From Acutalibacteraceae bacterium (GTDB lineage Bacteria; Bacillota; Clostridia; Oscillospirales; Acutalibacteraceae): 64,000 bases of DNA. The stretch covers positions 17,237 through 81,236 of the forward strand of contig JAZNPE010000048.1 of the NCBI GenBank assembly GCA_045589535.1, given 5' to 3'. Both the position numbers and the translations under genes were made by a program. The notes beneath the pieces were generated by a model. That model saw only the letters and a program-made list of their open reading frames with translations. It made no database searches and was not told where the DNA came from. Below, piece after piece: positions 1,830 to 27,693 of this stretch; position 1 is the first letter of the stretch; the number at the start of each line of letters is the position of its first letter.

Positions 1830-1841
1830 CTTTAATTCAAA

Positions 1842-3026: not shown

Positions 3027-3050
3027 GGTTTATCCCTTTCGTAATAACGC

Positions 3051-4250: not shown

Positions 4251-4252
4251 AC

Positions 4253-5293: not shown

Positions 5294-5308
5294 ATTATTT
5301 CTCCTATT

Positions 5309-6589: not shown

Positions 6590-6674
6590 TGTATTCTCCT
6601 TACTTTTTTACTGACAGTATCAATACCCAATACTTAACCTTATTGCTTAATACGAAAACATCTATATAGCTTAA

Positions 6675-8201: not shown

Positions 8202-8233
8202 AAAAATATCGCAGATTTACACAAATTCTTATA

Positions 8234-10622: not shown

Positions 10623-10625
10623 AAA

Positions 10626-11429: not shown

Positions 11430-12298
11430 TAAACATTCCCCAAATACTCGGTATAATTTTTCTCTGTGTCAAAAACATACGCGTGAACAGCAGCTTTGCG
11501 CTGCTCTTCACTCGGTAATTTCATATAATCACCGTAACGGTATGTAAGATACTCTTTTATTCTCTCAGAACCGAGAAGGTTGGTATCTTCAAAATTGATA
11601 TCGACGGGCTTCTCAAAAAAAGATTTATCAAACAAACCGTTTCTGAATTTTGCGGGGGTTATCCAATAGCAATACTTATAATTATCTTTTCTGCCGTCGT
11701 ATCTGTAAATATGGCTATATGCAATTCGTGCCATAAGCTTACAGGGCATAAATTTCAGGGAGTCGAGAACGACTTTCTGTGACTTACTTTTCGGCTTCCA
11801 GTTTCTTTGGGACAATCCGTAAAGCGTTACAAACTTGGATTCATAGTAAACCATTTTCTGAATAAATTTATTCTCCGGAACCTTATGAAGAATCATTATA
11901 TCAACATATATACCGTGGTGCATATCCATGCAGTTTTTGAAGTTCTCTTCAATAAACGTAGTGCCATTCATACGCACCTTTGCATATTCAAGATACTTAT
12001 TATCAGTTCGCCATTCCTGAAGGACAAACTGTTCGTTCTTGGTGTTTTCAAAAACTGTTTTGAATTTTTTGTATTGGTCGGGAGTCATAAATATATCCAG
12101 ATCATCGTCCCAGGGAATAAATCCTCCGTGGCGGACCGCACCGAGTGCCGTGCCACCCATTATATAATAAACAATCCCGTGTTCGCGGCACAGTTTGTCT
12201 ATAAACTTCATAGTTTCAAGAATTTTATCCTGTACGCTACGCACGGACCGCTGACTCATAAATCCACTTCTTTTCTTTTTACTAAGCTTTCTTTGCAA
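11429..12298 (-). CDS. LicD-family phosphotransferase (phospho-alcohol transfer to glycan)
   Basis: Contains the LicD hallmark YYIMGGTALGAVRHGGFIPWDDDLDIFM. Confidence 0.8.
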   Translation of the reverse strand: MQRKLSKKKRSGFMSQRSVRSVQDKILETMKFIDKLCREHGIVYYIMGGTALGAVRHGGFIPWDDDLDIFMTPDQYKKFKTVFENTKNEQFVLQEWRTDNKYLEYAKVRMNGTTFIEENFKNCMDMHHGIYVDIMILHKVPENKFIQKMVYYESKFVTLYGLSQRNWKPKSKSQKVVLDSLKFMPCKLMARIAYSHIYRYDGRKDNYKYCYWITPAKFRNGLFDKSFFEKPVDINFEDTNLLGSERIKEYLTYRYGDYMKLPSEEQRKAAVHAYVFDTEKNYTEYLGNV

Positions 12299-13112
12299 GA
12301 TAATAATACTTGCTCATTATTTTATTAAAAATCGGTATTCTTATCAAAATCTTTGCGACAAATTTCAACACTTTAAATATCGATGTTTTCACTGTATAAA
12401 CAACAACAGACTCCGTCCAACGGTGCGGATGGATACTGATTATGTTACCCTTAGTCTTATCTAATGCCTCTGATAAATAGTCAAGATTTTTATAAGGTAC
12501 ATTTTTATCATCGGTATTGACAACATCGTTATTTATCGGGTCATAAATGAGTTTAAACATTCGACCCGCATCTGAAAAATACAGATAATCTGTCGGTATT
12601 TTCTCTTTGAAATTTACCATTATATCCGCGATTTCAGGATATAATTCACGAACTTTTTCATTCCTGAAAAAATCACGGTTCGAGTGATAGCCGTTTCTCT
12701 CAACTATAGGATTGCCATGTTGGCAAACCGTTTTAATTTCAAATCCGTTGTCCTCAAACATCTTTTTGTTCTTTGCAAACTCTTCGATAGCTTTTTCAAA
12801 ATCACCTTTGCAAGCATCAAGAACGTCATAATGATATGAAATTTCGTGTCCCATATCCTGCATCTCAGACAACATTTTGATATTGCGTTCTTCTTCCAAC
12901 AAATACGCCTGCACATAATACGAACCTCTGTGTCCGTACTGATTTTCAATCTGTGCAATTCTGTACGCATGTGAAACATCAGTTTCAACATCGTGCTTCA
13001 GAACAAGATAATTGCCCGAATCGGATTTAACTTCGCAAGCAGGAATACTTTTGAAATTCTTTTCTTTTAACACAGAACAAAACTCTGCCCATTTTTTATA
13101 TACAAAAATCAT
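12282..13112 (-). CDS. hypothetical EPS-locus protein, possibly polysaccharide deacetylase-fold
   Basis: 276 aa. Only weak motif similarity (LKHDVETDV, H-rich segments). No firm assignment. Confidence 0.3.
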   Translation of the reverse strand: MIFVYKKWAEFCSVLKEKNFKSIPACEVKSDSGNYLVLKHDVETDVSHAYRIAQIENQYGHRGSYYVQAYLLEEERNIKMLSEMQDMGHEISYHYDVLDACKGDFEKAIEEFAKNKKMFEDNGFEIKTVCQHGNPIVERNGYHSNRDFFRNEKVRELYPEIADIMVNFKEKIPTDYLYFSDAGRMFKLIYDPINNDVVNTDDKNVPYKNLDYLSEALDKTKGNIISIHPHRWTESVVVYTVKTSIFKVLKFVAKILIRIPIFNKIMSKYYYLAKKA

Positions 13113-13534
13113 TCTTTATTAAGCCTTTCACGCAAAATAGTTGATGAAATACCGTCAGTATGAGACAAATACACAACGGAACATCCTTCAGATGCAAACT
13201 CCTCTTCATACTTGTTCCACGACGGTGTACCCTGCCAGTCAGAGCCCACAAAAACAGCATCAACATTGTACTTTTTTACGGCTGAAAGCTTGTCCATATC
13301 GTTCTGCAAAACAACTTTATCTACATATCTGATAGAATTAACTATTTCAACTCGCTCTTCTTCGCAGATAATAGGCTTTTTGTTTTTTCTCCTCATACAG
13401 AGTTCATCGGTTGTAACTCCGACAATAAGATACTCACACTGCTCTTTTGCACGTTTTATAATATTCAAGTGCCCGATATGAAACATATCGTAAACACCTG
13501 TTGTGTATCCGATTTTATACTTCTTTTCAGCCAT
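13109..13534 (-). CDS. tagD: glycerol-3-phosphate cytidylyltransferase
   Basis: 141 aa. Contains GYTTGVYDMFHIGHLNIIKRAKE (HxGH cytidylyltransferase motif) and RYVD. Size matches TagD/TarD. Confidence 0.85.
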   Translation of the reverse strand: MAEKKYKIGYTTGVYDMFHIGHLNIIKRAKEQCEYLIVGVTTDELCMRRKNKKPIICEEERVEIVNSIRYVDKVVLQNDMDKLSAVKKYNVDAVFVGSDWQGTPSWNKYEEEFASEGCSVVYLSHTDGISSTILRERLNKE

Positions 13535-13537
13535 AAC

Positions 13538-14371
13538 TTAAACCGTCTTTCTGGCAAATTTTTTAAACACCCAACTGCGGACTTTGTTAGGCAACAGCAT
13601 CTGAACAACCAGTCTTTCACCAACATTGACAAGGAATCTGTCAAGCCCTATAACCTTGTTATCCAACATATATTTCTGCAACTTAGCTTCACTAAGGAAG
13701 TATTTTGTTCCGCCACGACGCTGATACATCTCCTTGCCGATACGGACATTAACAAGATAGTCCGGCAGATTAGCAAACTTTGCTCCGTCCAGAAATAAGC
13801 GAAGCCACAGATATGTATCCTCTTCGCAGTACCAATCAATGTATCCTCCGACACTGTCAACACGGCTCTTTTTGAACATAACCGTAACCTGATTCATCGG
13901 GCATCTTCTCTTCATATCTTCTTTTATGGATGCATCATCAGATTTAACAACACGTGCCTCAACAATATTGTCAGGATATCCGACAAATTCCGTAATATTT
14001 CCGCCTACAACAGTAAGCTCAGGATCGCTTTCAAACAGCACAAGCTGCTTTTCGAACCTGTCCTCAGCACTGATATCATCCGCATCCATTAAAGCCACAA
14101 GCTCGTTAGAGCAGTTGTTTAAACCGACTCGACGCGCTTCTCCGTGACCTTTGTTCTCAGGCAAACGAATAACTTTAAATATTGAATTTTGCTCAAAATG
14201 GTTAATTACAACATCAAGCACTTGCGGAACAGGACCGTCAACCACAAGAACTACCTCATCGGGTTTTCTTGTCTGATTAAGGATACTGTCAACCGCAGTT
14301 CTGAACCATTCCGGATTATCCTTGCCGTAAACACACATGGATACAGAAAATTTTGTATCAGGCATCATCAT
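13538..14371 (-). CDS. glycosyltransferase family 2
   Basis: Contains FSVSMCVYGKDNPEWFRTAVDSILNQT and MDADDIS (DxD). Confidence 0.75.
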   Translation of the reverse strand: MMMPDTKFSVSMCVYGKDNPEWFRTAVDSILNQTRKPDEVVLVVDGPVPQVLDVVINHFEQNSIFKVIRLPENKGHGEARRVGLNNCSNELVALMDADDISAEDRFEKQLVLFESDPELTVVGGNITEFVGYPDNIVEARVVKSDDASIKEDMKRRCPMNQVTVMFKKSRVDSVGGYIDWYCEEDTYLWLRLFLDGAKFANLPDYLVNVRIGKEMYQRRGGTKYFLSEAKLQKYMLDNKVIGLDRFLVNVGERLVVQMLLPNKVRSWVFKKFARKTV

Positions 14372-15072
14372 ACCTCCAGGAGATCTTTTGCTTCTTTCTG
14401 GCGAAGTTCATATTCTTCGTTTGTCACTTCGCCTTTTTGTAGCAGATAGTCACCAAAATCAAGGTCACTTACCGTTCCTTCTCGGACTGTATCTGCTCTT
14501 TCAAAAACTTTTATTGCTGTTTTAAAAACAATCTTCGCATCATTCAAAAACGTTATTCCGTTTTCTATGTACTCAATATCATATTCGAACTTCTTTTCCC
14601 AACTGATATTGTTTCTTCCGTTTACCTGAGCCCAACCTGTTAATCCTGGCATTACACTGTGACGTACCCTCTGCTTCGGTGTCATAAACACCATATCCCG
14701 CACCAACTGCGGTCTGGGACCTACAATTGACATATCGCCTTTGAGAATATTTATAAGTTCGGGTAATTCATCCATTGATGTTGCACGAAGAAACCTTCCG
14801 TACCTTGTAAGACGTTTTTCATCAGGTAAAAGTTTTCCGTCAGCATCTTTTTTATTAGTCATTGAACGGAATTTTATTAACTTAAAAATTTTTTCGTTCT
14901 TTCCCGGTCTGGGTTGTGTAAAGAACGGATTGCCTCCCATCTTAACAGTGCCGATAATTATAAGCACCAATATCAATGGCGAAAGTATCACCAAGGCTAT
15001 CAGAGAAAGCAAAAAATCTATCATTCTTTTAAAAAACTTTTGGTACATACCTAAAACCCTCAATCGAAGCAA
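14368..15072 (-). CDS. undecaprenyl-phosphate sugar-phosphotransferase (small PglC/WcfS-like bacterial sugar transferase)
   Basis: One N-terminal TM helix followed by KFRSM...DELPQL-type motifs (DELPELINILKGDMSIVGPRP). The start is either TTG at 15072 or ATG at 15048. Confidence 0.8.
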   Translation of the reverse strand: MLRLRVLGMYQKFFKRMIDFLLSLIALVILSPLILVLIIIGTVKMGGNPFFTQPRPGKNEKIFKLIKFRSMTNKKDADGKLLPDEKRLTRYGRFLRATSMDELPELINILKGDMSIVGPRPQLVRDMVFMTPKQRVRHSVMPGLTGWAQVNGRNNISWEKKFEYDIEYIENGITFLNDAKIVFKTAIKVFERADTVREGTVSDLDFGDYLLQKGEVTNEEYELRQKEAKDLLEV

Positions 15073-16319
15073 CTTCTAACAATTTCAATAATTGCATTCT
15101 GCTCATCTGCCGTCATCTTTATATCACTGGGCAAACACAAGCCACGCTCAAAAATATCCATACTCACATCGAAAACTCCGCCCTCGATATAAGCGTCTGT
15201 TTTCGCTCTTAACGAACCGCTTCTTGTCACAAACTCATGCATACGGTACATCGGTTGCATATGCATCGGCTTCCAGAGAGGTCTGCCCTCTGCATTATAG
15301 CTTGCAAGTTTTTCAAGAATTTCCGTCGGGCAGGTTTTGCCTTTTTCCCTGACATAAAGTGCCTTGGAATCGTCTCTCACCTGACGGCACATATAATCCT
15401 TATCAATAATCATAGCTGAGAGCCAATAGTTAGGCTCTGTTTCGTCTGCTATAGGATTCATCTTCACCGGAAGATACTTGAATCCTTCACAATAACGTTC
15501 ATAAAGAGCTTTTTTACGTTCGATATGCTCTTCAAGATACTTGTACTGACCGCGGATAACACCTGCGACAACATTGCTCATGCGGTAGTTATAGCCAACC
15601 TCTTCGTGCTGATACCACGGGGCATTTTCCCTCGCCTGAGTTGACCATTTGCTTGCCTTATTTGCAACTTCCTGATCATCAGTAAGAAGACATCCGCCTG
15701 CTGAACCCGTGATAATTTTATTTCCGTTATAGCTTATTGCGGAATAGTCACCGAAAGAACCGCACTGTCTGCCGACTACTGTTGCGCCCATAGCCTCGGC
15801 AGCATCTTCAATAAGAAGTGCACCGTGCTTTTCACAGATCTCTTTAATTTTATCAATTCTTCCCGGGAAACCGTAAAGCTCAGCATAAACAACAAGCTTT
15901 ACATCAGGATAGAGTTCAAAGGCTTTTTCAAGAGCAACGGGATCCATATTCCATGAATCTTCCTCGGTATCAATAAAGACAGGAATACCGCCTTCATAAA
16001 CAACCGGATTGAGTGTTGCAGCAAAAGTCATATCGGAACAGAAAACACGCTTGTTTTCGAGTGCGCCGTGGCTGATTGCCGGTCTGCCGTAAAGCCTTTC
16101 ACCAGCAGCTTTCACCGTAAGGTGGAGCGCTGCCGTACACGACGAAAGCCCAACCGCATATTTCTTTTCAGCCTTCTCGGCGGCTATTCTCTCAACCTCA
16201 TTGATGTTTGCACCAACTGTAGACATCCAGTTTGTTTCATAAGCCTCTTTCATATATTCAAGCTCTTCTCCGTGCATTGTAGGAGTTGCAAGCCATATTT
16301 TTTTACTGAATCTTTCCAA
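15060..16319 (-). CDS. DegT/DnrJ/EryC1/StrS-family sugar aminotransferase
   Basis: 419 aa. PLP sugar aminotransferase pattern (PTMHGEELEYM, NGNKIITGSAGGCL). TTG start preceded by AGAGGG. Confidence 0.8.
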   Translation of the reverse strand: MERFSKKIWLATPTMHGEELEYMKEAYETNWMSTVGANINEVERIAAEKAEKKYAVGLSSCTAALHLTVKAAGERLYGRPAISHGALENKRVFCSDMTFAATLNPVVYEGGIPVFIDTEEDSWNMDPVALEKAFELYPDVKLVVYAELYGFPGRIDKIKEICEKHGALLIEDAAEAMGATVVGRQCGSFGDYSAISYNGNKIITGSAGGCLLTDDQEVANKASKWSTQARENAPWYQHEEVGYNYRMSNVVAGVIRGQYKYLEEHIERKKALYERYCEGFKYLPVKMNPIADETEPNYWLSAMIIDKDYMCRQVRDDSKALYVREKGKTCPTEILEKLASYNAEGRPLWKPMHMQPMYRMHEFVTRSGSLRAKTDAYIEGGVFDVSMDIFERGLCLPSDIKMTADEQNAIIEIVRSCFD

Positions 16320-16373: not shown

Positions 16374-17531
16374 CTATTTCAAATTTAATTTATCGAACAA
16401 TTTATGGTCGTAATCACTTTTCAATGCTAATTCAAGCCTGTTGGCATAGGTTTCCTTGAAGCCCTTCTTTTTACCGAACATCAGTGAAAAAATCCTGTAA
16501 AACTCATAAAACAGAGTAAGAATCGGATATTTTTCAAGTATCGGATAATCACGTTTTAAATATCTGTACGGAACGAAAACTCTTGAAATTATATATCTGA
16601 TCTTGCCGCCGGCGCGTTGATTGGCAGACTCATCTCTTGTTTTTGCAGAACCGAAAGTTCCGCCTTCAAGAATAAACTTTTCCATCTGTAATGTTATTTC
16701 GTCGTGCTCTTCATCGCTGAACCACACACGGCTGAGTTTTCTTGCGCTTTCAGCAAATGTTAAAAGTTTGCCATTTTTAAGAGTTTTATGTATTTCAGCG
16801 GTATATCCGCACTTGTTATCTATAAGTAACAGATCAATGAACGGTCGCAATCCGCATCCGCCGAGTCTGAAATGCTTTGCCATATGAAGAATATGGTAGT
16901 AATAAAAAATCTCATCGCTGAGTTTGTATCTGAAACCTGAGTCTTCACATGTCTTTGCCGTTTTCCAGATATCTTTAATCACCTTGGAATAAAGCGGTGA
17001 TTTTTTACTGCCAAGTAATTTATAATGAAGTTCAACAACCGTTTTATTATCTGAAAGAAAAACAATATCGTGTTTGCTTTCGCCTTTTTTTGAATAACCT
17101 TTGATACTAAGAATTGCATCAGTTGCCTTTTTCAGATCTTTTTCTTTAACAAGAATATCAACATCACAGCTCGTTCTCATCCATGGCTGAGGATACAGAC
17201 TGCGTATTTCTGCACCTTTCAGCGGAATGAACGGAATTCCCGTTTTTTCTAACACAGAACAAACTTCATCAAAGGATTTGCTCATTTTTTCCTGTTCAAA
17301 AACTGCCTTGTAAAATTCGTTCATAAACTGACCTTTCTGAGGACAGTTCATAAAATAACCGTTATTATTTAATGCTGAAGCCGCAAGATGTGCAACGTTA
17401 TGTTTATAAGACAACACAAGCAGCTCAACCAAATCTTTTTCGCTTAACGAAGCTGCATCGCACAAATCAAGTTTCTGTTGAAAAACTTCGTGTTTTATAA
17501 GATTCAATAAAATTCTGTCGATTTGCTCCAT
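16374..17531 (-). CDS. uncharacterised nucleotidyltransferase (PF14907/NTP_transf_5-like)
   Basis: 385 aa. The motif IPLKGAEIRSLYPQPWMRTSCDVDILV is characteristic of this family. Last gene of the peptide-modification module. Confidence 0.65.
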   Translation of the reverse strand: MEQIDRILLNLIKHEVFQQKLDLCDAASLSEKDLVELLVLSYKHNVAHLAASALNNNGYFMNCPQKGQFMNEFYKAVFEQEKMSKSFDEVCSVLEKTGIPFIPLKGAEIRSLYPQPWMRTSCDVDILVKEKDLKKATDAILSIKGYSKKGESKHDIVFLSDNKTVVELHYKLLGSKKSPLYSKVIKDIWKTAKTCEDSGFRYKLSDEIFYYYHILHMAKHFRLGGCGLRPFIDLLLIDNKCGYTAEIHKTLKNGKLLTFAESARKLSRVWFSDEEHDEITLQMEKFILEGGTFGSAKTRDESANQRAGGKIRYIISRVFVPYRYLKRDYPILEKYPILTLFYEFYRIFSLMFGKKKGFKETYANRLELALKSDYDHKLFDKLNLK

Positions 17532-17544
17532 AGTGTTGCTCCGA

Positions 17545-18009
17545 TTATTTTTTGTTTTTAATTCGTCTTATATTAAACCACAGACGCATAAAAAGCGGAC
17601 GAATCGGGGTAAGAAGTTCCCATATAAATGCAAAAATTTTCCAATAAACTGACTCTGAGCTTTTCCGTTTTCCCTTCCGTTCAATTTCACTCACACAGGC
17701 AACCACCTGCGACTTTTCAACTTTTTCACATTTCGTTTGTGCGTCACCGCAAAGAAGCATTGAACCATCAGGGCAGATTTTTTTAACTCTGTGAAGTACC
17801 AGTAAACCGTCTTTTCTTTTAAAAAGGAGAATACTGCCCTTGCTCAAATCTTTCTCCGCATACTTTTTGAGATAAACAATATCACGTCTGCTGATAAGAA
17901 AAGGATTCATACTGCTACCCGAAACACAGAGAGGTACAGTTGCACCTTCGGCAATTAAATTTTCAATCGAATCTGAAATCTCATATAGCGAGCAGTTATA
18001 CTTTTCCAT
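17545..18009 (-). CDS. S24/S26-family serine peptidase (signal-peptidase-like)
   Basis: 154 aa. Contains a GSSMNPFL Ser motif, an LHRVKK Lys motif and a C-terminal hydrophobic/amphipathic tail. Confidence 0.65.
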   Translation of the reverse strand: MEKYNCSLYEISDSIENLIAEGATVPLCVSGSSMNPFLISRRDIVYLKKYAEKDLSKGSILLFKRKDGLLVLHRVKKICPDGSMLLCGDAQTKCEKVEKSQVVACVSEIERKGKRKSSESVYWKIFAFIWELLTPIRPLFMRLWFNIRRIKNKK

Positions 18010-18012
18010 AAT

Positions 18013-18774
18013 TCACCCAAAAATCTCATTATATGTCAATCTTACTGCCTCTTCATCGGGTCTGCATTCAAGAATAAAAACTGGTGTTCTTTTTAAAAGA
18101 CAATCAAAAGTATCAAGAGTCTTATTAAGGCAATCTTTATCCCAATGAGGTAAAAAGATATGCGGCATAAGATATTCCGTTGCAGTTTCAACAAGCTTTG
18201 TTATGCGGTTTTCAGCAGACTGCCTCAATACAACTATCGCACTCAGGGGTGCTTTTCTGTTAAGACAATACTCTGATGAGCCTTTCCAAGGAAGACCGAA
18301 AGCAAAAAATGTTTCGTCAATTTCTCTTACAAAAGCTTTATCACCGTTTACGATTTCAGCACCAAGGAACTCCCCCCAGAGTTCAGCCTGAGTGGTTTTT
18401 CCGACACCTGAGTAGCCTGTAAAAAGAATCCCCTTTCCGTTAAGTGTTACAAACGAAGAATGTGTAAGTAAAGTGTTGAAAGAAGAAAATCTTGAACATA
18501 TTGCCGCAAGCGGTAAAGCAAAATCTCTGTCATAATCCGGATGGTAATATGAAACGGCCTCGCTCCAATTATTATTGGCAAGAAGTATATCACCGTTCCT
18601 GCCTCTTAATAAATGCTCCGGTTTTTCCAAAAGATACTGTACAGAATGACATTCCTGCATCTTATCTTCAAATTTAATTTTTATTACCGAATCTTTTTCG
18701 CCGGTTAAAAAATCTTCTGCGAAACCACAATTCTCTTTCTGCCAGTCAACCGACAGATCTGCAATCCGTATCAT
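18013..18774 (-). CDS. HPr-kinase-like P-loop protein (HprK C-terminal domain homolog)
   Basis: P-loop GILFTGYSGVGKTTQAELW. I moved the start to the ATG at 18774 because it forms an ATGA overlap with the stop of the 94-aa gene. The track start is 18798. Confidence 0.65.
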   Translation of the reverse strand: MIRIADLSVDWQKENCGFAEDFLTGEKDSVIKIKFEDKMQECHSVQYLLEKPEHLLRGRNGDILLANNNWSEAVSYYHPDYDRDFALPLAAICSRFSSFNTLLTHSSFVTLNGKGILFTGYSGVGKTTQAELWGEFLGAEIVNGDKAFVREIDETFFAFGLPWKGSSEYCLNRKAPLSAIVVLRQSAENRITKLVETATEYLMPHIFLPHWDKDCLNKTLDTFDCLLKRTPVFILECRPDEEAVRLTYNEIFG

Positions 18775-19055
18775 GTGTTCTGTGAACCGTTGAAGCAAAA
18801 GAAATAAGCTTCATATGCTCCATGTTTTTTAACCTGTTCCATAAGGTCGTTGTAATAATGAATAAAGTCTGTTCCCGGCAAATCTTTTGATACTGCAAGC
18901 TTTCCGGTGTATGTTTCACGGCAACCGTCCAGTTCGAATTTAAACTGAATAACAGCCATACCGCCAACTACATCATCGCCGACCGAAGCAGCGATACTTT
19001 CATTAAGATTAAGCGCAATAAGCTTACTTTCGGGAGCTACGTATTCTTTCTTCAT
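18771..19055 (-). CDS. 94-aa protein, candidate substrate or precursor of the adjacent radical SAM enzyme
   Basis: ATGA overlaps with the genes on both sides. Leader-like N-terminus MKKEYVAPESKLIALNLNESIAAS, a VVGG motif, and 2 Cys. Confidence 0.55.
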   Translation of the reverse strand: MKKEYVAPESKLIALNLNESIAASVGDDVVGGMAVIQFKFELDGCRETYTGKLAVSKDLPGTDFIHYYNDLMEQVKKHGAYEAYFFCFNGSQNT

Positions 19056-20110
19056 AATTCTTTCTCCTTCTTTTTTATATCATATAGTTGCTTAAGCTGT
19101 TTTGCTATATCACAAAAGGTTTCTGCCGGTTTCTCGGGATGTCCGCTTTCCGCACACAATACAGCCGGACAACGCTGACAGAATTCTTTCCATTCGCAAT
19201 CCGAACACTCTTTCGGATTTTTAATTTTTTCAAGCTGAGTATATAAATTTTTAAAATCTTTACTTATATCCCCTGAATATTCCGCACACGGTTCATTAAG
19301 AAACGAACATAGCTGAAGCTTTCCGTGCCAGGTAATATAAAGAGATTTACGATAACTTGCACACATTGAGAACGGGAATTCCGGGAAACGGTACTTACTT
19401 TTTTCAAGATCATCTAAAGTATATTCATAAGAGAAATCCGCAATACCTAACCTTGAGGTTTCTGCTGTGTTTGTTGCACCTCTTGACGATTTTAAAACAG
19501 AAACAGTGTGTTGAAGATGTACCCTTTTTTCTCTTGCAAACTGATAAATCTGCTGAAGGTCACCTGCATTTTCTTTTACTATTGTTGAAGAAAGAGTAAG
19601 CGGCACGCCAGCTTCTTTGATAAGGTCAATTGCCTTTGAGATATGGTCAAATCCGTCCGATACCCCGCATAGTCTGCGATAAGTTTCGTTGCTTGCACCG
19701 TATACTGTCAACTGCATATTGTGCGGCATACCGTAAAGTCGGAACTTTTCCATAGCTGTTTCATCTATAAAATATCCGTTAGAAAAAATCGTAATCCAGA
19801 AACCCATCTTATTAAGACGGCTGTAGATCTCCCAAAACTGAGGATGAGTGAAAACCTCACCGCCTGTAAGCAGAATTTTAAGGGTGCCCATTTCACGAAG
19901 CCTTTCGGCAATTTCAATCCACTCTTCTGCAGCAAGCATTGTTCCCTGCAAAGCTGCCTGTTCTTTGTCCAGACGGACATAGCACATAACACAATTAAAA
20001 TTACAGAAAGGTGTAAGTTCAAATGTTACAGAAAAAGGCGCACAATGTTCAACTGCCCATAAGTTGAGCTTGGCTAAAAAACCGTCGCCGAAACTTTCAC
20101 ATCCAAGCAT
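19052..20110 (-). CDS. radical SAM enzyme with C-terminal SPASM-type auxiliary cluster domain
   Basis: Contains CNFNCVMC (CX3CX2C). The C-terminus has C-x12-G-x4-C (CASYRKSLYITWHGKLQLC) and CSDCEWKEFCQRC (C-x2-C-x5-C-x2-C). Confidence 0.8.
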   Translation of the reverse strand: MLGCESFGDGFLAKLNLWAVEHCAPFSVTFELTPFCNFNCVMCYVRLDKEQAALQGTMLAAEEWIEIAERLREMGTLKILLTGGEVFTHPQFWEIYSRLNKMGFWITIFSNGYFIDETAMEKFRLYGMPHNMQLTVYGASNETYRRLCGVSDGFDHISKAIDLIKEAGVPLTLSSTIVKENAGDLQQIYQFAREKRVHLQHTVSVLKSSRGATNTAETSRLGIADFSYEYTLDDLEKSKYRFPEFPFSMCASYRKSLYITWHGKLQLCSFLNEPCAEYSGDISKDFKNLYTQLEKIKNPKECSDCEWKEFCQRCPAVLCAESGHPEKPAETFCDIAKQLKQLYDIKKKEKEL

Positions 20111-20379
20111 TATTCCAACGCTCCCTGTTCTTTTAACGAATTAATGAATTTTTCAACATCTTCAGCTGCAACAATTTTTTCGACCTCGTAGTTTTCGACA
20201 ATAATTTCAGTCAGTTCTTCAAGCGTAGCACCCTTCTCAAGTACCTTCCATAAAAGCTCTCCGCTTTCGCTTAAAGCAATCATTCCGTGCATCTTTGAAG
20301 TTTGTTCACCAACCGGAACGGCCATTACATATTCACCAATTTTACGGACAATAAAGCCATCCTTAACACGATATACCAT
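20110..20379 (-). CDS. PqqD-family protein (RiPP recognition element-like chaperone)
   Basis: 89 aa from the ATG at 20379, preceded by GGGGGAAAG (the track start at 20391 is a TTG). PqqD-like sequence LSESGELLWKVLEKGATLEELTEIIVENYEV. TAATG overlap with the rSAM gene. Confidence 0.7.
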   Translation of the reverse strand: MVYRVKDGFIVRKIGEYVMAVPVGEQTSKMHGMIALSESGELLWKVLEKGATLEELTEIIVENYEVEKIVAAEDVEKFINSLKEQGALE

Positions 20380-20423
20380 ACTTTCCCCCAAAAAACACTA
20401 CACCTATCTTATTTTACTAATAG

Positions 20424-20452
20424 ATTATAGCATTTTAACGTCATCAAATCAA
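20424..20452 (-). promoter_or_regulatory. sigma-A type promoter of the PqqD/rSAM module
   Basis: On the minus strand: TTGATT, 17 nt spacer, TGcTATAAT (extended -10). Lies about 45 nt upstream of the PqqD start. Confidence 0.55.
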
Positions 20453-20492
20453 TATTTTATTGTAAAAAATAATCGTAAAATTGAACAAATTG

Positions 20493-20530
20493 ACAAAAAT
20501 AAAGTGCATCATTTTCATATGACGCACTTT
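20493..20530 (-). terminator. rho-independent terminator after the ABC exporter
   Basis: Minus strand AAAGTGCGTCAT-atgaaa-ATGATGCACTTT followed by ATTTTTGT, immediately after the stop at 20535. Confidence 0.6.
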
Positions 20531-20534
20531 ATAA

Positions 20535-22265
20535 TTATTTATCTGTCTGTGAAAGACTTCCCTCTTCATCAACCCTGTAAACACGGTCACAATACTGTAG
20601 CATACTCGGTCTGTGAGTTGTTATGACACAGGTCCTGTTCGGATAAGATTTCATAATATTGGCAAGAACTTTTTTCTCTGTTTCAGCATCAAGTGCACTC
20701 GTTGCCTCATCCATAACAAGAACAGGTGAATTTTTAAGAATTGCCCTCGCAATTGAGATTCTCTGAATCTGACCTTCGGAAAAATTGACACCCTTTTCGT
20801 TTATAACCGTATAAATACCCAACGGAAGTTTTTCAATAAAGCTCCACGCTTCAGCTGTTTTCAGAACATCAACCAATTCGTCATCCGTAGCATCAGGATT
20901 AACCATACGCAGGTTATCTGCAATACTTCCCGCAAACACGGCATTCTCCTGCGGAACATAAGAGCAGAATCTGCGTGTACTTGCAGAAATATCGGTTTTT
21001 CTTCCATCCGCTACAGACATCGTCATTCTGCCCTTCTGTGGCTTGACAAGTCCTAAAATCAACCTGAGAATTGTTGTTTTTCCCTCACCCGAAGGGCCCA
21101 CAAGAGCGATGGTTTCACCCGGATTTACATAGAATGAAATGTCTTTTACGACAGGAGTTTTTCCGTCTTTATAGGAGTATGTAAGATTATCACAATTAAG
21201 ATATACACCCTTGTCGTAAGCTAACTGTTCAAGCTCTTCAACTTCAGCAGCATTAGCGGTATCCTCAACATCAAGCTCGGTGATTTCCATAACCCTTCCC
21301 GCAGCTGTTGCAATTGAAATTGAAGTCGGCAGAAGAGAAACAATAGAAGAAAAAGAGGAAGTCAACTGTCCCGAAATCTGAAGAAAGAGTGTCATTGTAC
21401 CGTAAGTTATCGCACCCTGCCAAAGACGCCATACACCCCAACCGTAACAAAGGTAAGAAACTGCAAGTCCGATGACAGAAAGACACATCGTCATAATAAT
21501 CGAAAACTTACCGTGGTCAAGACGCATTTTTCTGTAAATAAAAAGGTAATCCTTGAGCTGATTCACATAACGTTTAGTCACTCCGAAAGCCTTGATTGTC
21601 TGAATATTCTGGATTGATTCAGAATAAAACGAAAGGATTTTTCCGTTCATTTCTCTGCTTTCTTTGTTGTATTTACGCATCATCTTTGCTGAAATCCTTG
21701 AGGTTAAGGCAAGGAAAGGCGCACTCATAAAAGCAAACAAAGCCATTACCGGATCGTAGTATAAAACGACAGCAAGACAACCTACGAACTGTGTCACTCG
21801 GGTAAATACACTCGGAATAAATGAAATAATACTGCTTGAAATGGCTGAAACGTCACCTTCGATTCTGTTAAGAAGGTCACCTGAATGATATTTACTTATG
21901 TCTTCCCAATCGGCATACACAACGTGCTCATACACATTACTGCGGATTTCATTACTTATTTTCGAACCAACCACAGTTGCAACTCTTGATGTCGCAGAAG
22001 AAACCAAAATTTGCAGAAGACCGAGACCTACAGCAAAAACCGCACTTGAAACTATAGTCTTTTCATTGTGTGTAACAACAGAGTCGATAAGATATTTTGA
22101 AGCAACCGTTGAACCGATTCCCATCAACGTACCTATAATTCCGATGACAATATACAAAAAAATCTGAAAGCGATAACCTGAAGCATGCCGAATAAGCCAC
22201 TTCCATTCTTTAATTAAAGAACGGTACAACGTGGCATATTCACCCGGCTTTTTCATAATTATCAC
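20535..22265 (-). CDS. ABC exporter, fused permease/ATPase (MsbA/McjD-like architecture)
   Basis: 576 aa. Six-TM N-terminal half, Walker A GPSGEGKTT, signature FSEGQIQR, Walker B LVMDEATS. No C39 peptidase domain. Confidence 0.8.
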   Translation of the reverse strand: MIIMKKPGEYATLYRSLIKEWKWLIRHASGYRFQIFLYIVIGIIGTLMGIGSTVASKYLIDSVVTHNEKTIVSSAVFAVGLGLLQILVSSATSRVATVVGSKISNEIRSNVYEHVVYADWEDISKYHSGDLLNRIEGDVSAISSSIISFIPSVFTRVTQFVGCLAVVLYYDPVMALFAFMSAPFLALTSRISAKMMRKYNKESREMNGKILSFYSESIQNIQTIKAFGVTKRYVNQLKDYLFIYRKMRLDHGKFSIIMTMCLSVIGLAVSYLCYGWGVWRLWQGAITYGTMTLFLQISGQLTSSFSSIVSLLPTSISIATAAGRVMEITELDVEDTANAAEVEELEQLAYDKGVYLNCDNLTYSYKDGKTPVVKDISFYVNPGETIALVGPSGEGKTTILRLILGLVKPQKGRMTMSVADGRKTDISASTRRFCSYVPQENAVFAGSIADNLRMVNPDATDDELVDVLKTAEAWSFIEKLPLGIYTVINEKGVNFSEGQIQRISIARAILKNSPVLVMDEATSALDAETEKKVLANIMKSYPNRTCVITTHRPSMLQYCDRVYRVDEEGSLSQTDK

Positions 22266-22280
22266 CTCAATTCTTGTGTT

Positions 22281-23756
22281 TTAGTTTTTAGTTTTTGCTT
22301 TTTTCTTATCTGAATAACCGTATTTTGAAGAATAACCGTAGCGGTAAGAATATCTGTTGTAGTATCCGCCGTATCGGTAATATCCGCCGTATCCGCCAAT
22401 TCCTCCGGCAGCACCGTTAAGAACACAACCAAGGAACTCCGCGTCAGTTTCAAGCATTGAGTTGATACCCGCGCGGATAGTCTTCTGAATGACCGCATCT
22501 TCCCTGATTACATAAATAATTGAGTCTACCATCTGTGCAACAATCGTTGCATCCGAAATAATTCCGCACGGAGGGGTATCAACCAACACTAAATCATAGT
22601 CCGCTTTAAGACTCTCCAATTTTTTCTTAATCTCATCCGTACGAAGTATTTTCTGAACACTTTCAGCCTTTGGCTTAAATGTAAGCAAATAAAAGCCGAG
22701 AGAATCAATAAAATCTATCCGGTAATACTTATTATCCTCCACTTTTGTTCTAACAGTTTTGTCTTCACCCAACAGTGTTTGAATTCCGGAATCCCGCAAA
22801 TCCGCATCTACCATCAAAACCTTCTTTTCATTTTTCGCGAAAATTGATGCAAGATTAACCGAGAAAACTGTTTTACCTTCAGACGGAGCAGTACTGGTAA
22901 CCATAATTGTATTTTTATTTTCATCTATCAGGCTTTGAACAGCACCTCGAATCAACCTCAGAGACTCCATAAACTCGTTTCCGACAAGCGGATTGGACAG
23001 AATTATTCTTCGGTCAATCTCTCTTCTGTATTTTTTAAACACAACCTGCGGCAAAACGCCAAGACAGTGTTGATTGAGAACAGTTCGGATATCCTCTTTC
23101 GTTCGGATAGTTTTTCTGAGCAAAGCATACATCACTATCCATAAAACACCGAGAACAAAACCCACAAGAGCTGCCTTTGCAACTGAAGACACCCATACTC
23201 CGGAATTCGAAGGTTTTTCAGCAACTTCCGGTTCACTGATCATTACCAGTTTTGTTCTTCCAATAATATAGTCTGCAACAAAAGAGTAATTATCAATAAC
23301 AGACATCAGTGTATCATATGTCAATTGAGCATCTGTTCCTGTAGATGTGAGTGTAACCATATTGGTTCCCTGAACACAAGTTGCATTGACCGTCGCAGGC
23401 ATACTTTCTACTCCAAGATCGTTACAGACCTTGCTCTGAAGAATTTTATTACTTACTATATGCGGAAAAACCGTTTCCAACTGGTCAGCAGTTTCTCTGT
23501 CATAGTAATATGAATATGCCGCGATACCATTATCACCGGTAAGCACCTGATTCTCTGTGTGAACAGTAAAAGTTGCTGTTGTTTTGTACATAGGAACAAA
23601 ATGAACATAGCTTCTGTAAAACTGTATACCCGACAAAAGAACAGCAAGAGCAAGTGCTACCCAACCGAATTTTTTAATTCCGCGTAACACATCGCTTATC
23701 AGAACACCTATTTCTATGGTCATTTCTTCTTTTTCGTTTTCAATCGTATAGTTCAT
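22281..23756 (-). CDS. fused Wzz chain-length regulator / BY-type tyrosine autokinase, with Tyr-rich tail
   Basis: 491 aa. Two-TM Wzz-like N-terminal half, Walker A TSTAPSEGKT, LVLVDTPP, and C-terminal tail GGYGGYYRYGGYYNRYSYRYGYSSKYGYS. Confidence 0.8.
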   Translation of the reverse strand: MNYTIENEKEEMTIEIGVLISDVLRGIKKFGWVALALAVLLSGIQFYRSYVHFVPMYKTTATFTVHTENQVLTGDNGIAAYSYYYDRETADQLETVFPHIVSNKILQSKVCNDLGVESMPATVNATCVQGTNMVTLTSTGTDAQLTYDTLMSVIDNYSFVADYIIGRTKLVMISEPEVAEKPSNSGVWVSSVAKAALVGFVLGVLWIVMYALLRKTIRTKEDIRTVLNQHCLGVLPQVVFKKYRREIDRRIILSNPLVGNEFMESLRLIRGAVQSLIDENKNTIMVTSTAPSEGKTVFSVNLASIFAKNEKKVLMVDADLRDSGIQTLLGEDKTVRTKVEDNKYYRIDFIDSLGFYLLTFKPKAESVQKILRTDEIKKKLESLKADYDLVLVDTPPCGIISDATIVAQMVDSIIYVIREDAVIQKTIRAGINSMLETDAEFLGCVLNGAAGGIGGYGGYYRYGGYYNRYSYRYGYSSKYGYSDKKKAKTKN

Positions 23757-23766
23757 AATACCAATC

Positions 23767-25281
23767 CTATTCGTTTCGGTTTAAGTTATCCAATGAATTT
23801 TCTGAAAAACCGCCATTATCCTGCGGAACTTCATCGGACACGGATTTACCTGTTTTGGAATAAGCATAATAGTTGCTCTGTCCGTGATAACCGCGTTCGT
23901 CAGCACCCAACTGTCCAAACAAAGTAAACGGTTTATATACGTTGTTAAGTACACAACCTTCGATATTTCCTCCCGCTTCTGTAATATTAAGAATAACTTC
24001 ATTGATATCCTCAACAGGAACACAGTCCGTACGAACAACAAGAACCGACGCATCAGCTACTTCCGCAATCGTTATCGCGTCAGCCGAAACAGAAATCGGC
24101 GGCGTATCAATTATAATAAAATCAGCCTTTTGTTCTATTTGAGTCAAAGCATTTTTAACCACAAGGTTATTGGAAAGAAGATCCGAACTTTCATGTGTTT
24201 TTTTATTGAATGCTATAGTAAGATTGCTCTTTCTGTATCTGTAAAATTTAAAATTTGCAAGTTCAACATCCTTGGATAATACATCTGAAAAATCCGTTTC
24301 AACTTCTTCGTGGAAATCAAAAATCTTGTGAATAGACGGTTTTCTGACATCAAGATCAAGAAGAACAACATTGTATCCTCTGTCCGACAATGCCAAAGAA
24401 ATATTTGCCGCAACCGTTGATTTGCCTTCATTTTCAGCTACACTTGAAATAACAAAAGATTTTTTATTCTGATTCTTATGTAAATATTCAAATTTTGTAC
24501 AGAGCTTTTGATAATCTTCAGTAAAGCGCAGACTTGAATATGCATCATTAATAAGCAACGCTCGTTTCTTTCTCTTGAACCTTTCTTTCTTTGAAAGATG
24601 CGGTCGTTCATGTGACACTGTTCCGATCAGCTTAGAATCGACTTTATCAGAAAAGCCCTTTTCCTCCTTCACTGTTCCTCGTAATAAAGAGAACAGCACT
24701 ACTAATCCGCCTTCAAATAACATCGCCAAAACTATAATCTGTTTTCTGTAAACTGTAAGGCGTGAATTAGACGGCGTCGTAGCCATTGTAGGCTCTGAAA
24801 CAACATCAATAATTGAATCTGTAAACACAGCTTCTGTTACTTCCGGATAAACCTCAAGTATAGATGTAAGCAATTTGAACGCCAGTTCAGGTTCTTCCGC
24901 CCTTACAGCAACATTCAAGAGATTTGTGGATTCGGTCAGACTTGTAGAAATTGTTCCGTCGAATGACTCTAATCCGAGATTTTCTGCGGCCAACTTTTTA
25001 AGTGAATTCTGTTTAAAAACATCTTTGAAAATATTTGCCATTTCTACCGAAGCTGTAAGGCTGCTGAACGCGCCTGTTGTTCCTACTCTTGAACGGACAA
25101 CCAAAACAGCCTTGCTGGTGTAAGTGGGTGTATAAATACTTTTTTCAACAATCTGAATCCCCATCAGAGCTATAAGAGCAATAAGAATGATTGCCCAGAA
25201 GCTGCGAACAATATCCTTTATCAAGCTGTTCCATTCAAAATTAAAACTAATTCCTGAACTGTTCCTTTTCACTCTTATCAC
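23767..25281 (-). CDS. second fused Wzz / BY-kinase-like protein
   Basis: 504 aa. Wzz-like N-terminal half, Walker A SSVAENEGKST, FIIIDTPP, and a shorter Tyr cluster YHGQSNYYAYSK. Confidence 0.75.
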   Translation of the reverse strand: MIRVKRNSSGISFNFEWNSLIKDIVRSFWAIILIALIALMGIQIVEKSIYTPTYTSKAVLVVRSRVGTTGAFSSLTASVEMANIFKDVFKQNSLKKLAAENLGLESFDGTISTSLTESTNLLNVAVRAEEPELAFKLLTSILEVYPEVTEAVFTDSIIDVVSEPTMATTPSNSRLTVYRKQIIVLAMLFEGGLVVLFSLLRGTVKEEKGFSDKVDSKLIGTVSHERPHLSKKERFKRKKRALLINDAYSSLRFTEDYQKLCTKFEYLHKNQNKKSFVISSVAENEGKSTVAANISLALSDRGYNVVLLDLDVRKPSIHKIFDFHEEVETDFSDVLSKDVELANFKFYRYRKSNLTIAFNKKTHESSDLLSNNLVVKNALTQIEQKADFIIIDTPPISVSADAITIAEVADASVLVVRTDCVPVEDINEVILNITEAGGNIEGCVLNNVYKPFTLFGQLGADERGYHGQSNYYAYSKTGKSVSDEVPQDNGGFSENSLDNLNRNE

Positions 25282-26105
25282 TCCTCTACTACAACCGTCA
25301 TAATTGAATGGCCTTCATAGCCGTCTTTGGTTGAAATATAATAATGAACATTATATGTTCCGGCTTCTTCTGAATCAAAGTTTGTAGAAATCAGCAATTG
25401 GATATCTTCCGGTTTCATCAGCACGCCGTTTACTGTAACATCACCAAGATAATCTTCGAACTTAGGTGTTTCGCCCTTCTTTATGTAAATAAGGCTCTTC
25501 TTCAGCTGAATCTGCGGAGCCATTGTTTCATTACCCTCAACATGTACCGTTACATCCAGGTAAATCGTATCACCTTTGCTGTTTGAAACCTGTAAGGAAA
25601 CAGTAAAAACACCCGCAGTATTTCTTATGTAGTCCGTTGTAACAATAGCGACTCTGTCGCTTATATCACCATCTATGCAGTCACGTGCACCGACAGCCCC
25701 TCTGATATCAAGTGCCTCGTCAACGCTGTAAACCAAAGCACGTTTCATATAAAACTCCGGTTTTGTATAGTCAGTATACTTAAGCGTTCTTGTCTTTTTT
25801 ACAACATGCTTGTCCGAGTCAGCAACAGCATAAGTAACCGTACACACACCCGGCTCAATGAACTTGGAAACCGATTCAATACAAACCCAATCTGTAATGT
25901 CACCGTCTTTTTCATCATAGGCAGCAACACCCTGCAAAAGCATTTCTTCTTTATCTTTTACGCTGAGTTCAATAACTTCGCTATCAATGGTAATTTCCGG
26001 AATAGTTGTATCTGTTGTTATTTTTTCAACAACAGAAAAAATAATGAACGCAATTAACATCAATACAAAAAGAGCAAGCGTAAGTCTTCTGAGCAATCTG
26101 ACCAT
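25278..26105 (-). CDS. membrane-anchored protein with repeated Ig-like (DUF5011-like) domains
   Basis: N-terminal TM helix. The pattern A.D..DGDI(T/S)..V recurs about three times. Confidence 0.45.
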   Translation of the reverse strand: MVRLLRRLTLALFVLMLIAFIIFSVVEKITTDTTIPEITIDSEVIELSVKDKEEMLLQGVAAYDEKDGDITDWVCIESVSKFIEPGVCTVTYAVADSDKHVVKKTRTLKYTDYTKPEFYMKRALVYSVDEALDIRGAVGARDCIDGDISDRVAIVTTDYIRNTAGVFTVSLQVSNSKGDTIYLDVTVHVEGNETMAPQIQLKKSLIYIKKGETPKFEDYLGDVTVNGVLMKPEDIQLLISTNFDSEEAGTYNVHYYISTKDGYEGHSIMTVVVEE

Positions 26106-26973: not shown

Positions 26974-27693
26974 TTATCTGGCTTGGTCATCTCCGAGGAG
27001 AAGTTTATAGGTTTCAAGAACACACTTAAGGTCGATTAAGAACGATTGTTTTTCAATGTATTCAACGTCCCATGCGACCTTCTCTTCAGGCTTCAGCTCA
27101 TAACCGCCGTTAATCTGTGCCCATCCTGTAAGACCCGGTTTCACATAAAGTCTGTGTTTGAAGCCGACAATATATGACTCAAATTCGTTGTAAAAGAACT
27201 GGCGTTCCGGACGCGGACCTACAACACTCATATCCCCTTTAAGGATATTCCAAAATTGCGGAATTTCATCCAGGTGCGTTTTTCTGAGAAGTGCACCGAT
27301 CTTCGTTACTCTGTCGTCATCCTTCTTAGCCCACACCGCACCGTCTTTTTCAGCATCGGTAACCATTGTACGAAATTTATAAATGTTAAACTCTGCACCA
27401 TTCTTTCCAAGACGCTTCTGTGAATAAATCACGGGACCTTTTGATGTTACAGCAATACAAAAAGCAATCACAAGCGACGGAATCGAAAAAATAAGGAGAG
27501 CAACTAAAGAGCAAATGATATCGAAAACCCGCTTTCCAAAAAGGAAAAATTTTCCACCATTTACCCTCACCGGTTCTTTCACCACGAACTTTCTCCCATC
27601 GTCAAAATTTTCGACAGATAAATGAGATTTCACAACTTCGTGCTGATTGTCAGAAATAACAATATCAACTTTTTCGTTTACCGTTTTTTTCAT
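26974..27693 (-). CDS. undecaprenyl-phosphate sugar-phosphotransferase (second initiating transferase)
   Basis: Contains KFRTM, LDEIPQFWNILKGDMSVVGPRP and GLTGWAQING. First gene of the locus. Confidence 0.8.
   Translation of the reverse strand: MKKTVNEKVDIVISDNQHEVVKSHLSVENFDDGRKFVVKEPVRVNGGKFFLFGKRVFDIICSLVALLIFSIPSLVIAFCIAVTSKGPVIYSQKRLGKNGAEFNIYKFRTMVTDAEKDGAVWAKKDDDRVTKIGALLRKTHLDEIPQFWNILKGDMSVVGPRPERQFFYNEFESYIVGFKHRLYVKPGLTGWAQINGGYELKPEEKVAWDVEYIEKQSFLIDLKCVLETYKLLLGDDQAR

Follow-up and report, generated by a model that had tools for sequence, protein, structure and literature searches.

In a stretch of 64,000 nucleotides from an Acutalibacteraceae bacterium (contig JAZNPE010000048.1; hereafter the window, with positions counted from its first letter), we studied a cassette of six minus-strand genes that lies inside a locus for capsule or exopolysaccharide (EPS) synthesis. 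We conclude that this region is probably a maturation cassette for a peptide or protein, in which a radical S-adenosylmethionine (rSAM) enzyme depends on the leader of its substrate and on a recognition element for peptides that are ribosomally synthesized and then modified post-translationally (RiPP recognition element, RRE), and that the cassette is a stable accessory of one type of Wzx/Wzy-dependent capsule locus. The arrangement is far beyond chance, with the same order in 77 species-representative loci. Gene content, protein folds and motifs, the contrast in conservation between leader and core, synteny, co-divergence with neighbouring genes and operon coupling are all directly established.

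An initial annotation, made from the DNA alone, had read six coupled genes here, and all six open reading frames (ORFs) were recovered. In the order of transcription, they encode a PqqD-family RRE of 89 aa (20110-20379 from its ATG, within an ORF that begins at a TTG at 20391), an rSAM enzyme of 352 aa with a SPASM-type array of C-terminal cysteines (19052-20110), a putative precursor of 94 aa (18771-19055; hereafter the small protein), a ScmC-like P-loop protein of 253 aa with the HPr-kinase/phosphoenolpyruvate carboxykinase (PEPCK) fold, which is a putative peptide kinase (18013-18774), an S26-like serine peptidase of the SipW/endoplasmic reticulum (ER) type, 154 aa long and a putative leader peptidase (17545-18009), and a PF14907 (NTP_transf_5) nucleotidyltransferase (NTase) of 385 aa (16374-17531). 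The coupling overlaps can be read directly in the sequence: the PqqD stop and the rSAM start share TAATG at 20110, ATGA at 19052-19055 joins the rSAM gene to that of the small protein, and ATGA at 18771-18774 joins the latter to the ScmC-like gene. The remaining gaps are 3 nt (ScmC-like gene to peptidase) and 13 nt (peptidase to NTase). This order is not peculiar to the window. A scan of species-representative genomes returned 116 relatives of the rSAM enzyme, from which 80 loci were retrieved, 77 of them with the small gene; in 77 of 77 the PqqD gene directly precedes and the small gene directly follows the rSAM gene, the ScmC-like gene comes after the small gene in 73 of 74, and the junctions between cassette genes are mostly 4-nt overlaps. 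The gene order read in the window thus recurs, almost always within EPS loci.

The signals around the cassette agree with the initial annotation in most respects. A terminator-like hairpin with a 14-bp stem and a T run (20532-20499, minus strand) follows the upstream gene for an ATP-binding cassette (ABC) exporter and separates it from the cassette, as had been proposed. At the other end there is, again as proposed, no minus-strand terminator-like site between the NTase stop at 16374 and the aminotransferase gene that follows; the suggested co-expression with downstream sugar genes is plausible in that they can be co-transcribed, and the median gap from the NTase to the priming transferase gene is -1 nt (32 loci). 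The proposal that the cassette has its own promoter fares less evenly. The gap of 143 nt between the ABC and PqqD genes does contain TTGATT-17-TATAAT, with an extended -10 TG (20452-20424, minus strand), but matches to promoter patterns are overall no commoner than expected (48 vs 44.6 in shuffled sequence), so that this site alone is weak and only suggestive evidence. In half of the related loci the ABC-PqqD gap is 20 nt or less, as against 143 nt here, and any such promoter would therefore be clade-specific.

PqqD domains are binders of peptide leaders, and the assignment of the first gene is secure (PF05402, E = 1.5e-13, 51.3 bits against a cutoff of 23.4), with weak matches to the lasso and GeoRSP PqqD chaperone models. 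The second gene product is an rSAM enzyme (PF04055, E = 1.3e-24) whose CX3CX2C motif, C36/C40/C43, is invariant among homologues, as are eight more cysteines in the C-terminal part (C250, C268, C302, C305, C311, C314, C319 and C333). They are laid out as C250...G263-X4-C268 and C302-X2-C305-X5-C311-X2-C314-X4-C319, the spacing of the last pair departing from the canonical CX3C. Of the initial claim of a radical SAM enzyme with SPASM cysteine signatures, the radical SAM domain and the cysteine array therefore stand, but the hidden Markov model (HMM) for SPASM, PF13186, scores below its cutoff (E = 0.068). No NCBIfam family model came near its cutoff for this protein, and among the best partial matches, peptide maturases (PqqE, ScmE, StsB, MftC, AlbA and SkfB) stand side by side with enzymes of cofactor synthesis (AhbD, NirJ and MoaA). 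We tried to place the enzyme in a known family by HMM and dropped the attempt, since peptide and cofactor families score alike with none near its cutoff. The nearest solved structures by sequence are SkfB (E = 1.8e-18), PqqE and anSME, all of them maturases of peptides or proteins; the similarity of SkfB type is confined to the rSAM core, residues 22-196. The family as a whole is large, with 848 clusters at E <= 1e-10.

The small protein is the candidate substrate. Its residues 1-24 (MKKEYVAPESKLIALNLNESIAAS) are leader-like and are followed by a core of about 70 aa with conserved C45-R46, Y49 and C87; no Pfam or NCBIfam family matched it. Column entropy, taken over 76 distinct sequences of 84-104 aa, averages 0.98 bits in residues 1-24 vs 1.99 bits in the rest. 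Y5, P8, S10, E19, I21 and Y49 are 100% conserved, C45 and C87 99%, and after an insert of variable length behind S24 the core retains only I36, F38, C45-R46, Y49, Y67 and C87. Median identity is 45%, compared with 57% for the rSAM enzyme. The C-terminal tails differ among homologues both in how long they are and in what they contain (NGSQNT, KRK, YQFSG, CIGA and others), many of them having no Ser, and the C-terminal Ser phosphorylation known from paeninodin, which the initial annotation had in mind, does not hold up against tails of this kind. The N-terminus is not a Sec signal, and charged residues occur throughout. AlphaFold2 (AF2) models the protein as mostly coil with two short helices, with low confidence (predicted local distance difference test, pLDDT, of 43.5). 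A full HMMER scan of 1.84 billion representative proteins found only 30 clusters, nearly all of 84-104 aa and matching from residue 1. The initial reading of the region as a RiPP-like peptide-modification module is thus borne out by a PqqD RRE, an rSAM enzyme with SPASM-type cysteines and an adjoining small gene with a conserved leader.

Two further observations concern the same protein. An invariant A22-x-S24 fits the rule of small residues at positions -3 and -1 of a cleavage site; we considered the motif as a marker of the S26-like peptidase and dropped the idea, because it is kept where the peptidase is absent and so is not tied to the enzyme. Separately, the small-protein profile matches, over residues 18-59, nine tandem immunoglobulin (Ig)-like repeats of P0270, a surface protein of 1799 aa, with a total E of 1.9e-16, and the repeats (GSGIDRIEYRVGEDGTWETYTSPFEV) resemble GGMAVIQFKFELDGCRETYTG. 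We judged this to be a probable chance match inflated by the repeats, although it might hint at a beta-hairpin of that type in the core.

The three remaining products are two plausible tailoring enzymes and a putative leader peptidase. By sequence, the ScmC-like protein matches HPr kinase weakly (0.0027) and only around the P-loop, and its matches in the PDB are of P-loop level alone (E about 0.3). Its AF2 model, in contrast, is confident (pLDDT 91.3), and Foldseek places HPrK/P 1jb1 (E = 1.7e-6), 3tqf, 1ko7 and PEPCK at the top with a probability of 1.00, so that the HPr-kinase-like P-loop assignment, weak by sequence, is confirmed by fold. The GxSGxGKTT and NGDK motifs are invariant in the homologues, and PF27840 (ScmC) is found on every homologue among the matches listed (120 of 388), in a precomputed annotation that is marked weak for the window copy. 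The NTase is an unequivocal member of PF14907, as had been claimed (E = 4.4e-36), and its KG...DxD motif is invariant in 62 homologues; it is encoded in 55 of 69 loci, where its gene often overlaps that of the priming glycosyltransferase. The peptidase, present in 49 of 69 loci, is more distant from described models, all of its HMM matches being below cutoff (sigpep_I_arch 1.1e-5, 25.4 vs 51.85 bits; SipW 8.8e-4, 18.9 vs 190; PF00717 0.0014). In 57 homologues, G31, S33, M34 and P36 (GxSMxP) and H73-R74 are invariant; we take GxSMxP and HR[VI] to hold the Ser nucleophile and the His general base, that is, boxes B and D of S26. With an invariant His-Arg where bacterial S26 and S24 enzymes have Lys, the protein is not the Ser/Lys S24/S26 peptidase first proposed but a Ser/His enzyme of the SipW/ER type. 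It has no N-terminal hydrophobic segment or membrane anchor, only a hydrophobic stretch at the C-terminus, and is more likely a cytoplasmic leader peptidase of the SodX-like kind.

Related cassettes with other precursors offer an independent view of the leader. About ten loci carry a second, paralogous cassette with, in this order, an S26-like peptidase, an rSAM enzyme of 380-406 aa, an ORF of 54-56 aa (MKKTYETPVAEKIEFRYNDQVVASGTSCTQIWYGYGDFITPNCTHEVAVPDSGY) and a ScmC-like protein of 378 aa, located either between the ABC and PqqD genes (L023:6454-9579 and L046:6439-9575, also L024, L029, L031, L035, L041 and L043) or upstream of CpsB (L063:644-4849 and L074:80-3318). The 54-56-aa products begin with MKKxYxTPVAEKIEF...QVVAS and have a core of about 30 aa with two Cys; the 378-aa ScmC/HPrK-like protein carries a fused C-terminal PqqD domain (PF05402, 2.9e-13), and some of these cassettes have a PF14907 NTase of their own. 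Such a cassette resembles a RiPP cluster of the classical kind with a short precursor, within the same superfamily. Precursor-like ORFs also occur in cassettes that are more distant, with 95 aa in L085, 130 aa in L138 and about 85 aa in L169, and they too have an MK(K)xYxxP leader and Cys-containing cores. The cassette in L085 (8137-11014) combines, in this order, the 95-aa Cys-rich ORF (MMKKVYEKPRAY) with an S26-like peptidase, a PqqD protein, a ScmC-like protein and an rSAM enzyme that is 31% identical, and it adjoins a surface protein of 2658 aa outside the EPS head. At the starts of ORFs of 30-160 aa, the leader motif occurs 100 times in 91 loci vs 9 times in reversed-sequence controls. 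A fusion of the kinase fold with an RRE, and a common leader on cores of differing length, are what leader-guided peptide modification predicts.

The 80 loci are nearly all from Acutalibacteraceae, other Oscillospirales or unclassified Clostridia metagenome-assembled genomes, many from the gut of goat, sheep and deer. In the window, the cassette is preceded, in this order, by a Bac_transf gene, the CpsB phosphatase, an Ig-like single-pass membrane protein (25278-26105, minus strand), two tandem fused polysaccharide co-polymerase (PCP, Wzz)/bacterial tyrosine kinases (BY-kinases; BYK1 at 23767-25281 and BYK2 at 22281-23756, minus strand) and the ABC exporter; the Ig-like protein and the kinases, identified by Pfam, are part of the EPS head. 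By eye, the Walker A, A' and B motifs of both kinases are intact, and the second kinase has a long Tyr-rich tail. Across the related loci, the ABC gene lies upstream of the cassette in 71 of 73, the Ig-like gene with both kinase genes in 69 of 70 and CpsB in 46 of 69, and a priming transferase lies downstream in 49 of 67. The downstream sugar genes differ among loci and the 5' block is constant; a conserved head and a serotype-specific tail are the usual layout of capsule loci. About 12 loci consist only of Ig-BYK1-BYK2-ABC-PqqD-rSAM-small-ScmC, the downstream sequence covered being free of glycosyltransferase genes, and in L141 the cassette has come to lie on the other side of the head, in opposite order and still adjoining it. 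The identities of cassette and head proteins to those of the window co-vary (Spearman 0.76-0.92), and on a tree of the ABC exporter the presence and absence of the cassette need only two changes, with 'present' as the ancestral state under midpoint rooting. From the two-change tree and the co-varying identities, it follows that the cassette is old in the lineage, mostly retained and occasionally lost.

The exporter itself needs a separate word. It is MsbA-like (PF00664 and PF00005; 20535-22265, minus strand) and has no C39 peptidase domain. The initial annotation had listed it immediately upstream of the module. A metagenome scan anchored on the Ig-like protein turned up heads without the cassette: in at least seven loci whose downstream DNA is long enough (L109, L110, L112, L117, L120, L136 and L137), CpsB-Ig-BYK1-BYK2-ABC runs directly into CapD-like, DegT or Bac_transf genes, with no PqqD, rSAM, small or ScmC genes in the sequence covered. 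The ABC exporter is thus a component of the EPS head without a specific tie to the cassette, which weakens its candidacy as a dedicated peptide exporter. We also rejected the idea that it supplies a flippase missing from the EPS pathway, since Wzx and Wzy are both encoded in the locus itself. In a separate clade from the human gut (L150:13661-16466 and L152-L168), the order is BYK2, an S26-like peptidase and the ABC exporter, with no rSAM gene in the sequence covered; behind the ABC gene is an ORF of 75 aa that begins with a signal peptide and has, like a sortase substrate, a C-terminal PQTG followed by a hydrophobic stretch and a basic tail.

Taken together, we propose that the 94-aa product is the substrate and that its roughly 24 N-terminal residues (MKKxYxxPxSKL...E.IAxS) serve as the leader that the PqqD protein binds; PqqD would then present the core of about 70 aa to the rSAM/SPASM enzyme. 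SkfB, QhpD, AlbA and PapB make Cys-derived thioether crosslinks. Two or more Cys are the sole feature common to all cores, and crosslinks of this type, most likely at C45 and C87, are therefore our best guess for the product. The ScmC-like enzyme of HPr-kinase fold would phosphorylate a hydroxyl side chain; the NTase, where present, may extend the phosphate, as in pseudomycoidin; and the SipW-like S26 peptidase, where present, would remove the leader, plausibly after A22-x-S24. The mature product may leave through the adjoining MsbA-like ABC exporter and act at the surface with the Ig-like/PCP-tyrosine-kinase head, to judge by gene linkage. Our confidence in each single step is lower than that in the overall kind of system.

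Several observations weigh against a leader-dependent maturation cassette that is wedded to capsule synthesis. A core of 70 aa conserved over its full length is atypical of RiPPs and could instead be that of a folded accessory protein, and the AF2 alignment of the small protein was shallow (19 sequences), so that its apparent disorder is weak evidence. The rSAM enzyme matches AhbD, NirJ and MoaA as strongly as it matches peptide maturases, and no model of a characterised maturase passes its cutoff. The peptidase is absent from 20 of 69 loci, the NTase from 14 and both from 12, so neither is essential; A-x-S is retained even in loci where no peptidase is encoded, and a phospho-acceptor residue is not identifiable from the sequences. 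Loci that have no cassette carry the ABC exporter too, so that export of the product through it is no more than possible. Finally, the association with EPS genes could be largely historical, the outcome of one ancient insertion inherited vertically.

This last point is at the heart of a rather unlikely alternative, namely that the product is a RiPP of the common secreted sort, for example a bacteriocin or a pheromone of the sactipeptide or ranthipeptide type with phosphate tailoring, whose genes were inserted once in the EPS operon of an ancestor, have been inherited there and share only transcription with it. Such an origin would account for related cassettes that stand at another position or lack an EPS context (the one in L085 and the L063 and L074 paralogues), for the mere two changes of presence and absence on the ABC tree, for a co-divergence of cassette and head that vertical inheritance would produce as well, and for the promoter-like site and upstream terminator of the window cassette. 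It sits less well with adjacency to the head kept in 69 of 70 species down to about 50% rSAM identity, an adjacency that also survives rearrangement (L141) and persists in the roughly 12 loci of head plus minimal cassette. Neither an immunity gene nor a dedicated C39 exporter is present, the core is moderately conserved and not hypervariable (medians of 45% vs 57% for the rSAM enzyme), and the NTase gene is translationally coupled to that of the priming transferase. Head adjacency, this coupling, the co-divergence and the retention of the cassette across the ABC tree speak for a link to EPS. There is a stronger version of such a link, which we hold to be distinctly unlikely as it stands: a crosslinked, phosphorylated and, through the NTase, phospho-glycosylated peptide of about 70 aa would be a dedicated component of capsule assembly, either a primer or anchor for the polysaccharide or an extracytoplasmic ligand of the head with control over EPS export or chain length. 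The peptide-glycan conjugate raised in this connection is pure speculation.

Two other explanations change the nature of the substrate. The small protein might be a structural or adaptor subunit, with the enzymes acting on the Tyr-rich tails of the BY-kinases, on the Ig-like protein or on a sugar or a lipid-linked EPS intermediate. Whole-length conservation with several invariant aromatic residues, an rSAM enzyme that HMMs do not place in a peptide family and the position of the enzymes within a sugar operon are compatible with this. Nevertheless, we consider it very unlikely, given that PqqD domains bind peptide leaders, that the same leader motif stands on the 54-aa Cys peptides of the paralogous cassettes next to a PqqD-bearing kinase-like enzyme, that the N-terminus is the most conserved part (as expected for a leader and not for a folded subunit) and that AF2 finds no fold. 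Highly improbable, in turn, is a small molecule or cofactor excised from the precursor in the manner of pyrroloquinoline quinone (PQQ) or mycofactocin and possibly glycosylated later. Precursors of that kind are about 20-30 aa long with an invariant C-terminal motif, whereas the cores here measure 60-105 aa and the tail is unconserved, and oxidoreductase partners were not seen in the loci examined. What speaks for a cofactor is that, among NCBIfam models, the rSAM core matches PqqE best, that MftC also matches, and that a peptidase and a sugar- or nucleotide-transferring enzyme are at hand; mycofactocin, too, is glycosylated.

For a leader-dependent maturation cassette, the closest working analogue for so large a substrate is the maturation of QhpC, the gamma-subunit precursor, by QhpD in quinohemoprotein amine dehydrogenase (QHNDH). 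QhpC is a mostly coil protein of about 80 aa whose 28-residue leader is needed for binding QhpD (PMC7876137); it is crosslinked at Cys by this rSAM enzyme, trimmed by the serine protease QhpE, exported by the ABC transporter QhpF and joined to a larger complex (PMC7876137). What the two systems would have in common is a small, mostly coil protein with a leader (about 80-110 aa), an rSAM enzyme with SPASM-type cysteines, a serine protease that removes the leader and a peptidase-less MsbA-like ABC exporter alongside, and the QHNDH product works within a larger extracytoplasmic assembly, not as a free natural product (PMC7876137). The analogy is one of logic only, as there is no sequence relation to QhpC or QhpD beyond the generic rSAM level. 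Unlike QHNDH, the cassette has a stand-alone PqqD RRE, an S26-like instead of a subtilisin-like protease and an added kinase-like enzyme and NTase, while the EPS locus has no QhpA/QhpB dehydrogenase genes and an ABC exporter that is not dedicated to the cassette.

The tailoring genes point elsewhere. An HPr-kinase-fold enzyme, a PF14907 NTase, a PqqD RRE and an ABC exporter share one cluster, as they do here, in lasso peptide tailoring (PadeK of paeninodin; PsmK and PsmN of pseudomycoidin), where the HPrK-like kinase acts on the linear precursor and PsmN extends the phosphate with hexoses (PMC8498205). However, lasso clusters differ in that here an rSAM enzyme is present, there is no conserved C-terminal Ser and the precursor is 3-4 times longer. 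In agreement with the initial annotation, Pfam finds no lasso cyclase or B2 protease in the EPS locus (639-27693) or in ten of the larger ORFs beyond it, and there is none in the related loci mapped. With the sactipeptide and ranthipeptide maturases SkfB, AlbA, CteB and PapB, the cassette shares an rSAM enzyme, here with SPASM-type cysteines, an RRE and Cys-containing cores; it differs from them in that only the rSAM core is similar, no family model reaches its cutoff, the RRE is unfused and the core is much larger. The initial annotation had recognised no described class in this combination. That needs amending, since a PqqD homologue, a PqqE-like rSAM/SPASM enzyme and a ScmC-type protein make up the logic of SynChlorMet (Scm; NCBIfam/TIGRFAM, PF27840), itself uncharacterised and defined by bioinformatics only. 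The likeness is one of composition, as the ScmC equivalog model TIGR04249 gives 12.7 bits vs a cutoff of 125, ScmE 70.3 vs 400 and ScmF 50.8 vs 400, and the window has one rSAM enzyme, not two. Beyond SynChlorMet, the cassette has an evident precursor candidate, an S26 peptidase, an NTase and an EPS context.

While the individual enzyme families are known, the cassette is apparently an undescribed candidate RiPP-like pathway of the RRE-dependent radical SAM kind. We found no description of it in the literature, although most subscription journals were outside our coverage and this absence is no proof; nor was there any account of a link between RiPPs and capsule or EPS in the searchable literature. 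What is unusual about it is the core of about 70 aa, the union of an rSAM enzyme with a lasso-type kinase and NTase, the SipW-like peptidase and a fixed seat in the head of a capsule locus across a family. If our reading is right, an uncharacterised RiPP-like class would be a fixed part of capsule loci in more than 100 species of Clostridia, uncultured but abundant, from herbivore and human guts, and rSAM crosslinking would be joined with a kinase/NTase tailoring so far seen only in lasso peptides. It would also tie the modification of ribosomal peptides, in a testable way, to capsule/EPS biogenesis or to the control of this process by tyrosine kinases, and would offer a defined substrate candidate for two orphan families, PF27840 (ScmC) and PF14907. 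Should the product prove to be a capsule component, a whole family of gut Clostridia would have RiPP chemistry as an integral part of Wzy-dependent capsule synthesis.

The rest of the locus conforms to its type. The set of Wzx/Wzy-dependent, cps-type genes is complete (CpsB, PCP/BY-kinase, priming Bac_transf, Wzx, Wzy and glycosyltransferases) and lies on the same strand as the cassette. Its variable downstream part (639-16319, minus strand) encodes DegT, Bac_transf, GT2, CTP-transferase, LicD, pyruvyl transferase, Wzy (8234-9520, minus strand), Wzx (6675-8201, minus strand), GT1 and sugar-nucleotide enzymes. There are two Bac_transf genes, one before CpsB (26974-27693) and one after the cassette and DegT (14368-15072). 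Between the CTP-transferase and LicD genes is an ORF of 276 aa (12282-13112) to which no Pfam family corresponds and which is conserved in L003 (14649-15479). Housekeeping genes flank the EPS locus (SpoVAD, IF-2, NusA and aconitase), which places it in the core chromosome and not in an island. Farther along the window, two large AMP-binding (adenylate-forming) proteins (49817-52084 and 52489-54996) have unusual N-terminal fusions, one with a helix-turn-helix and a cupin and the other with a xylose-isomerase-like TIM barrel.

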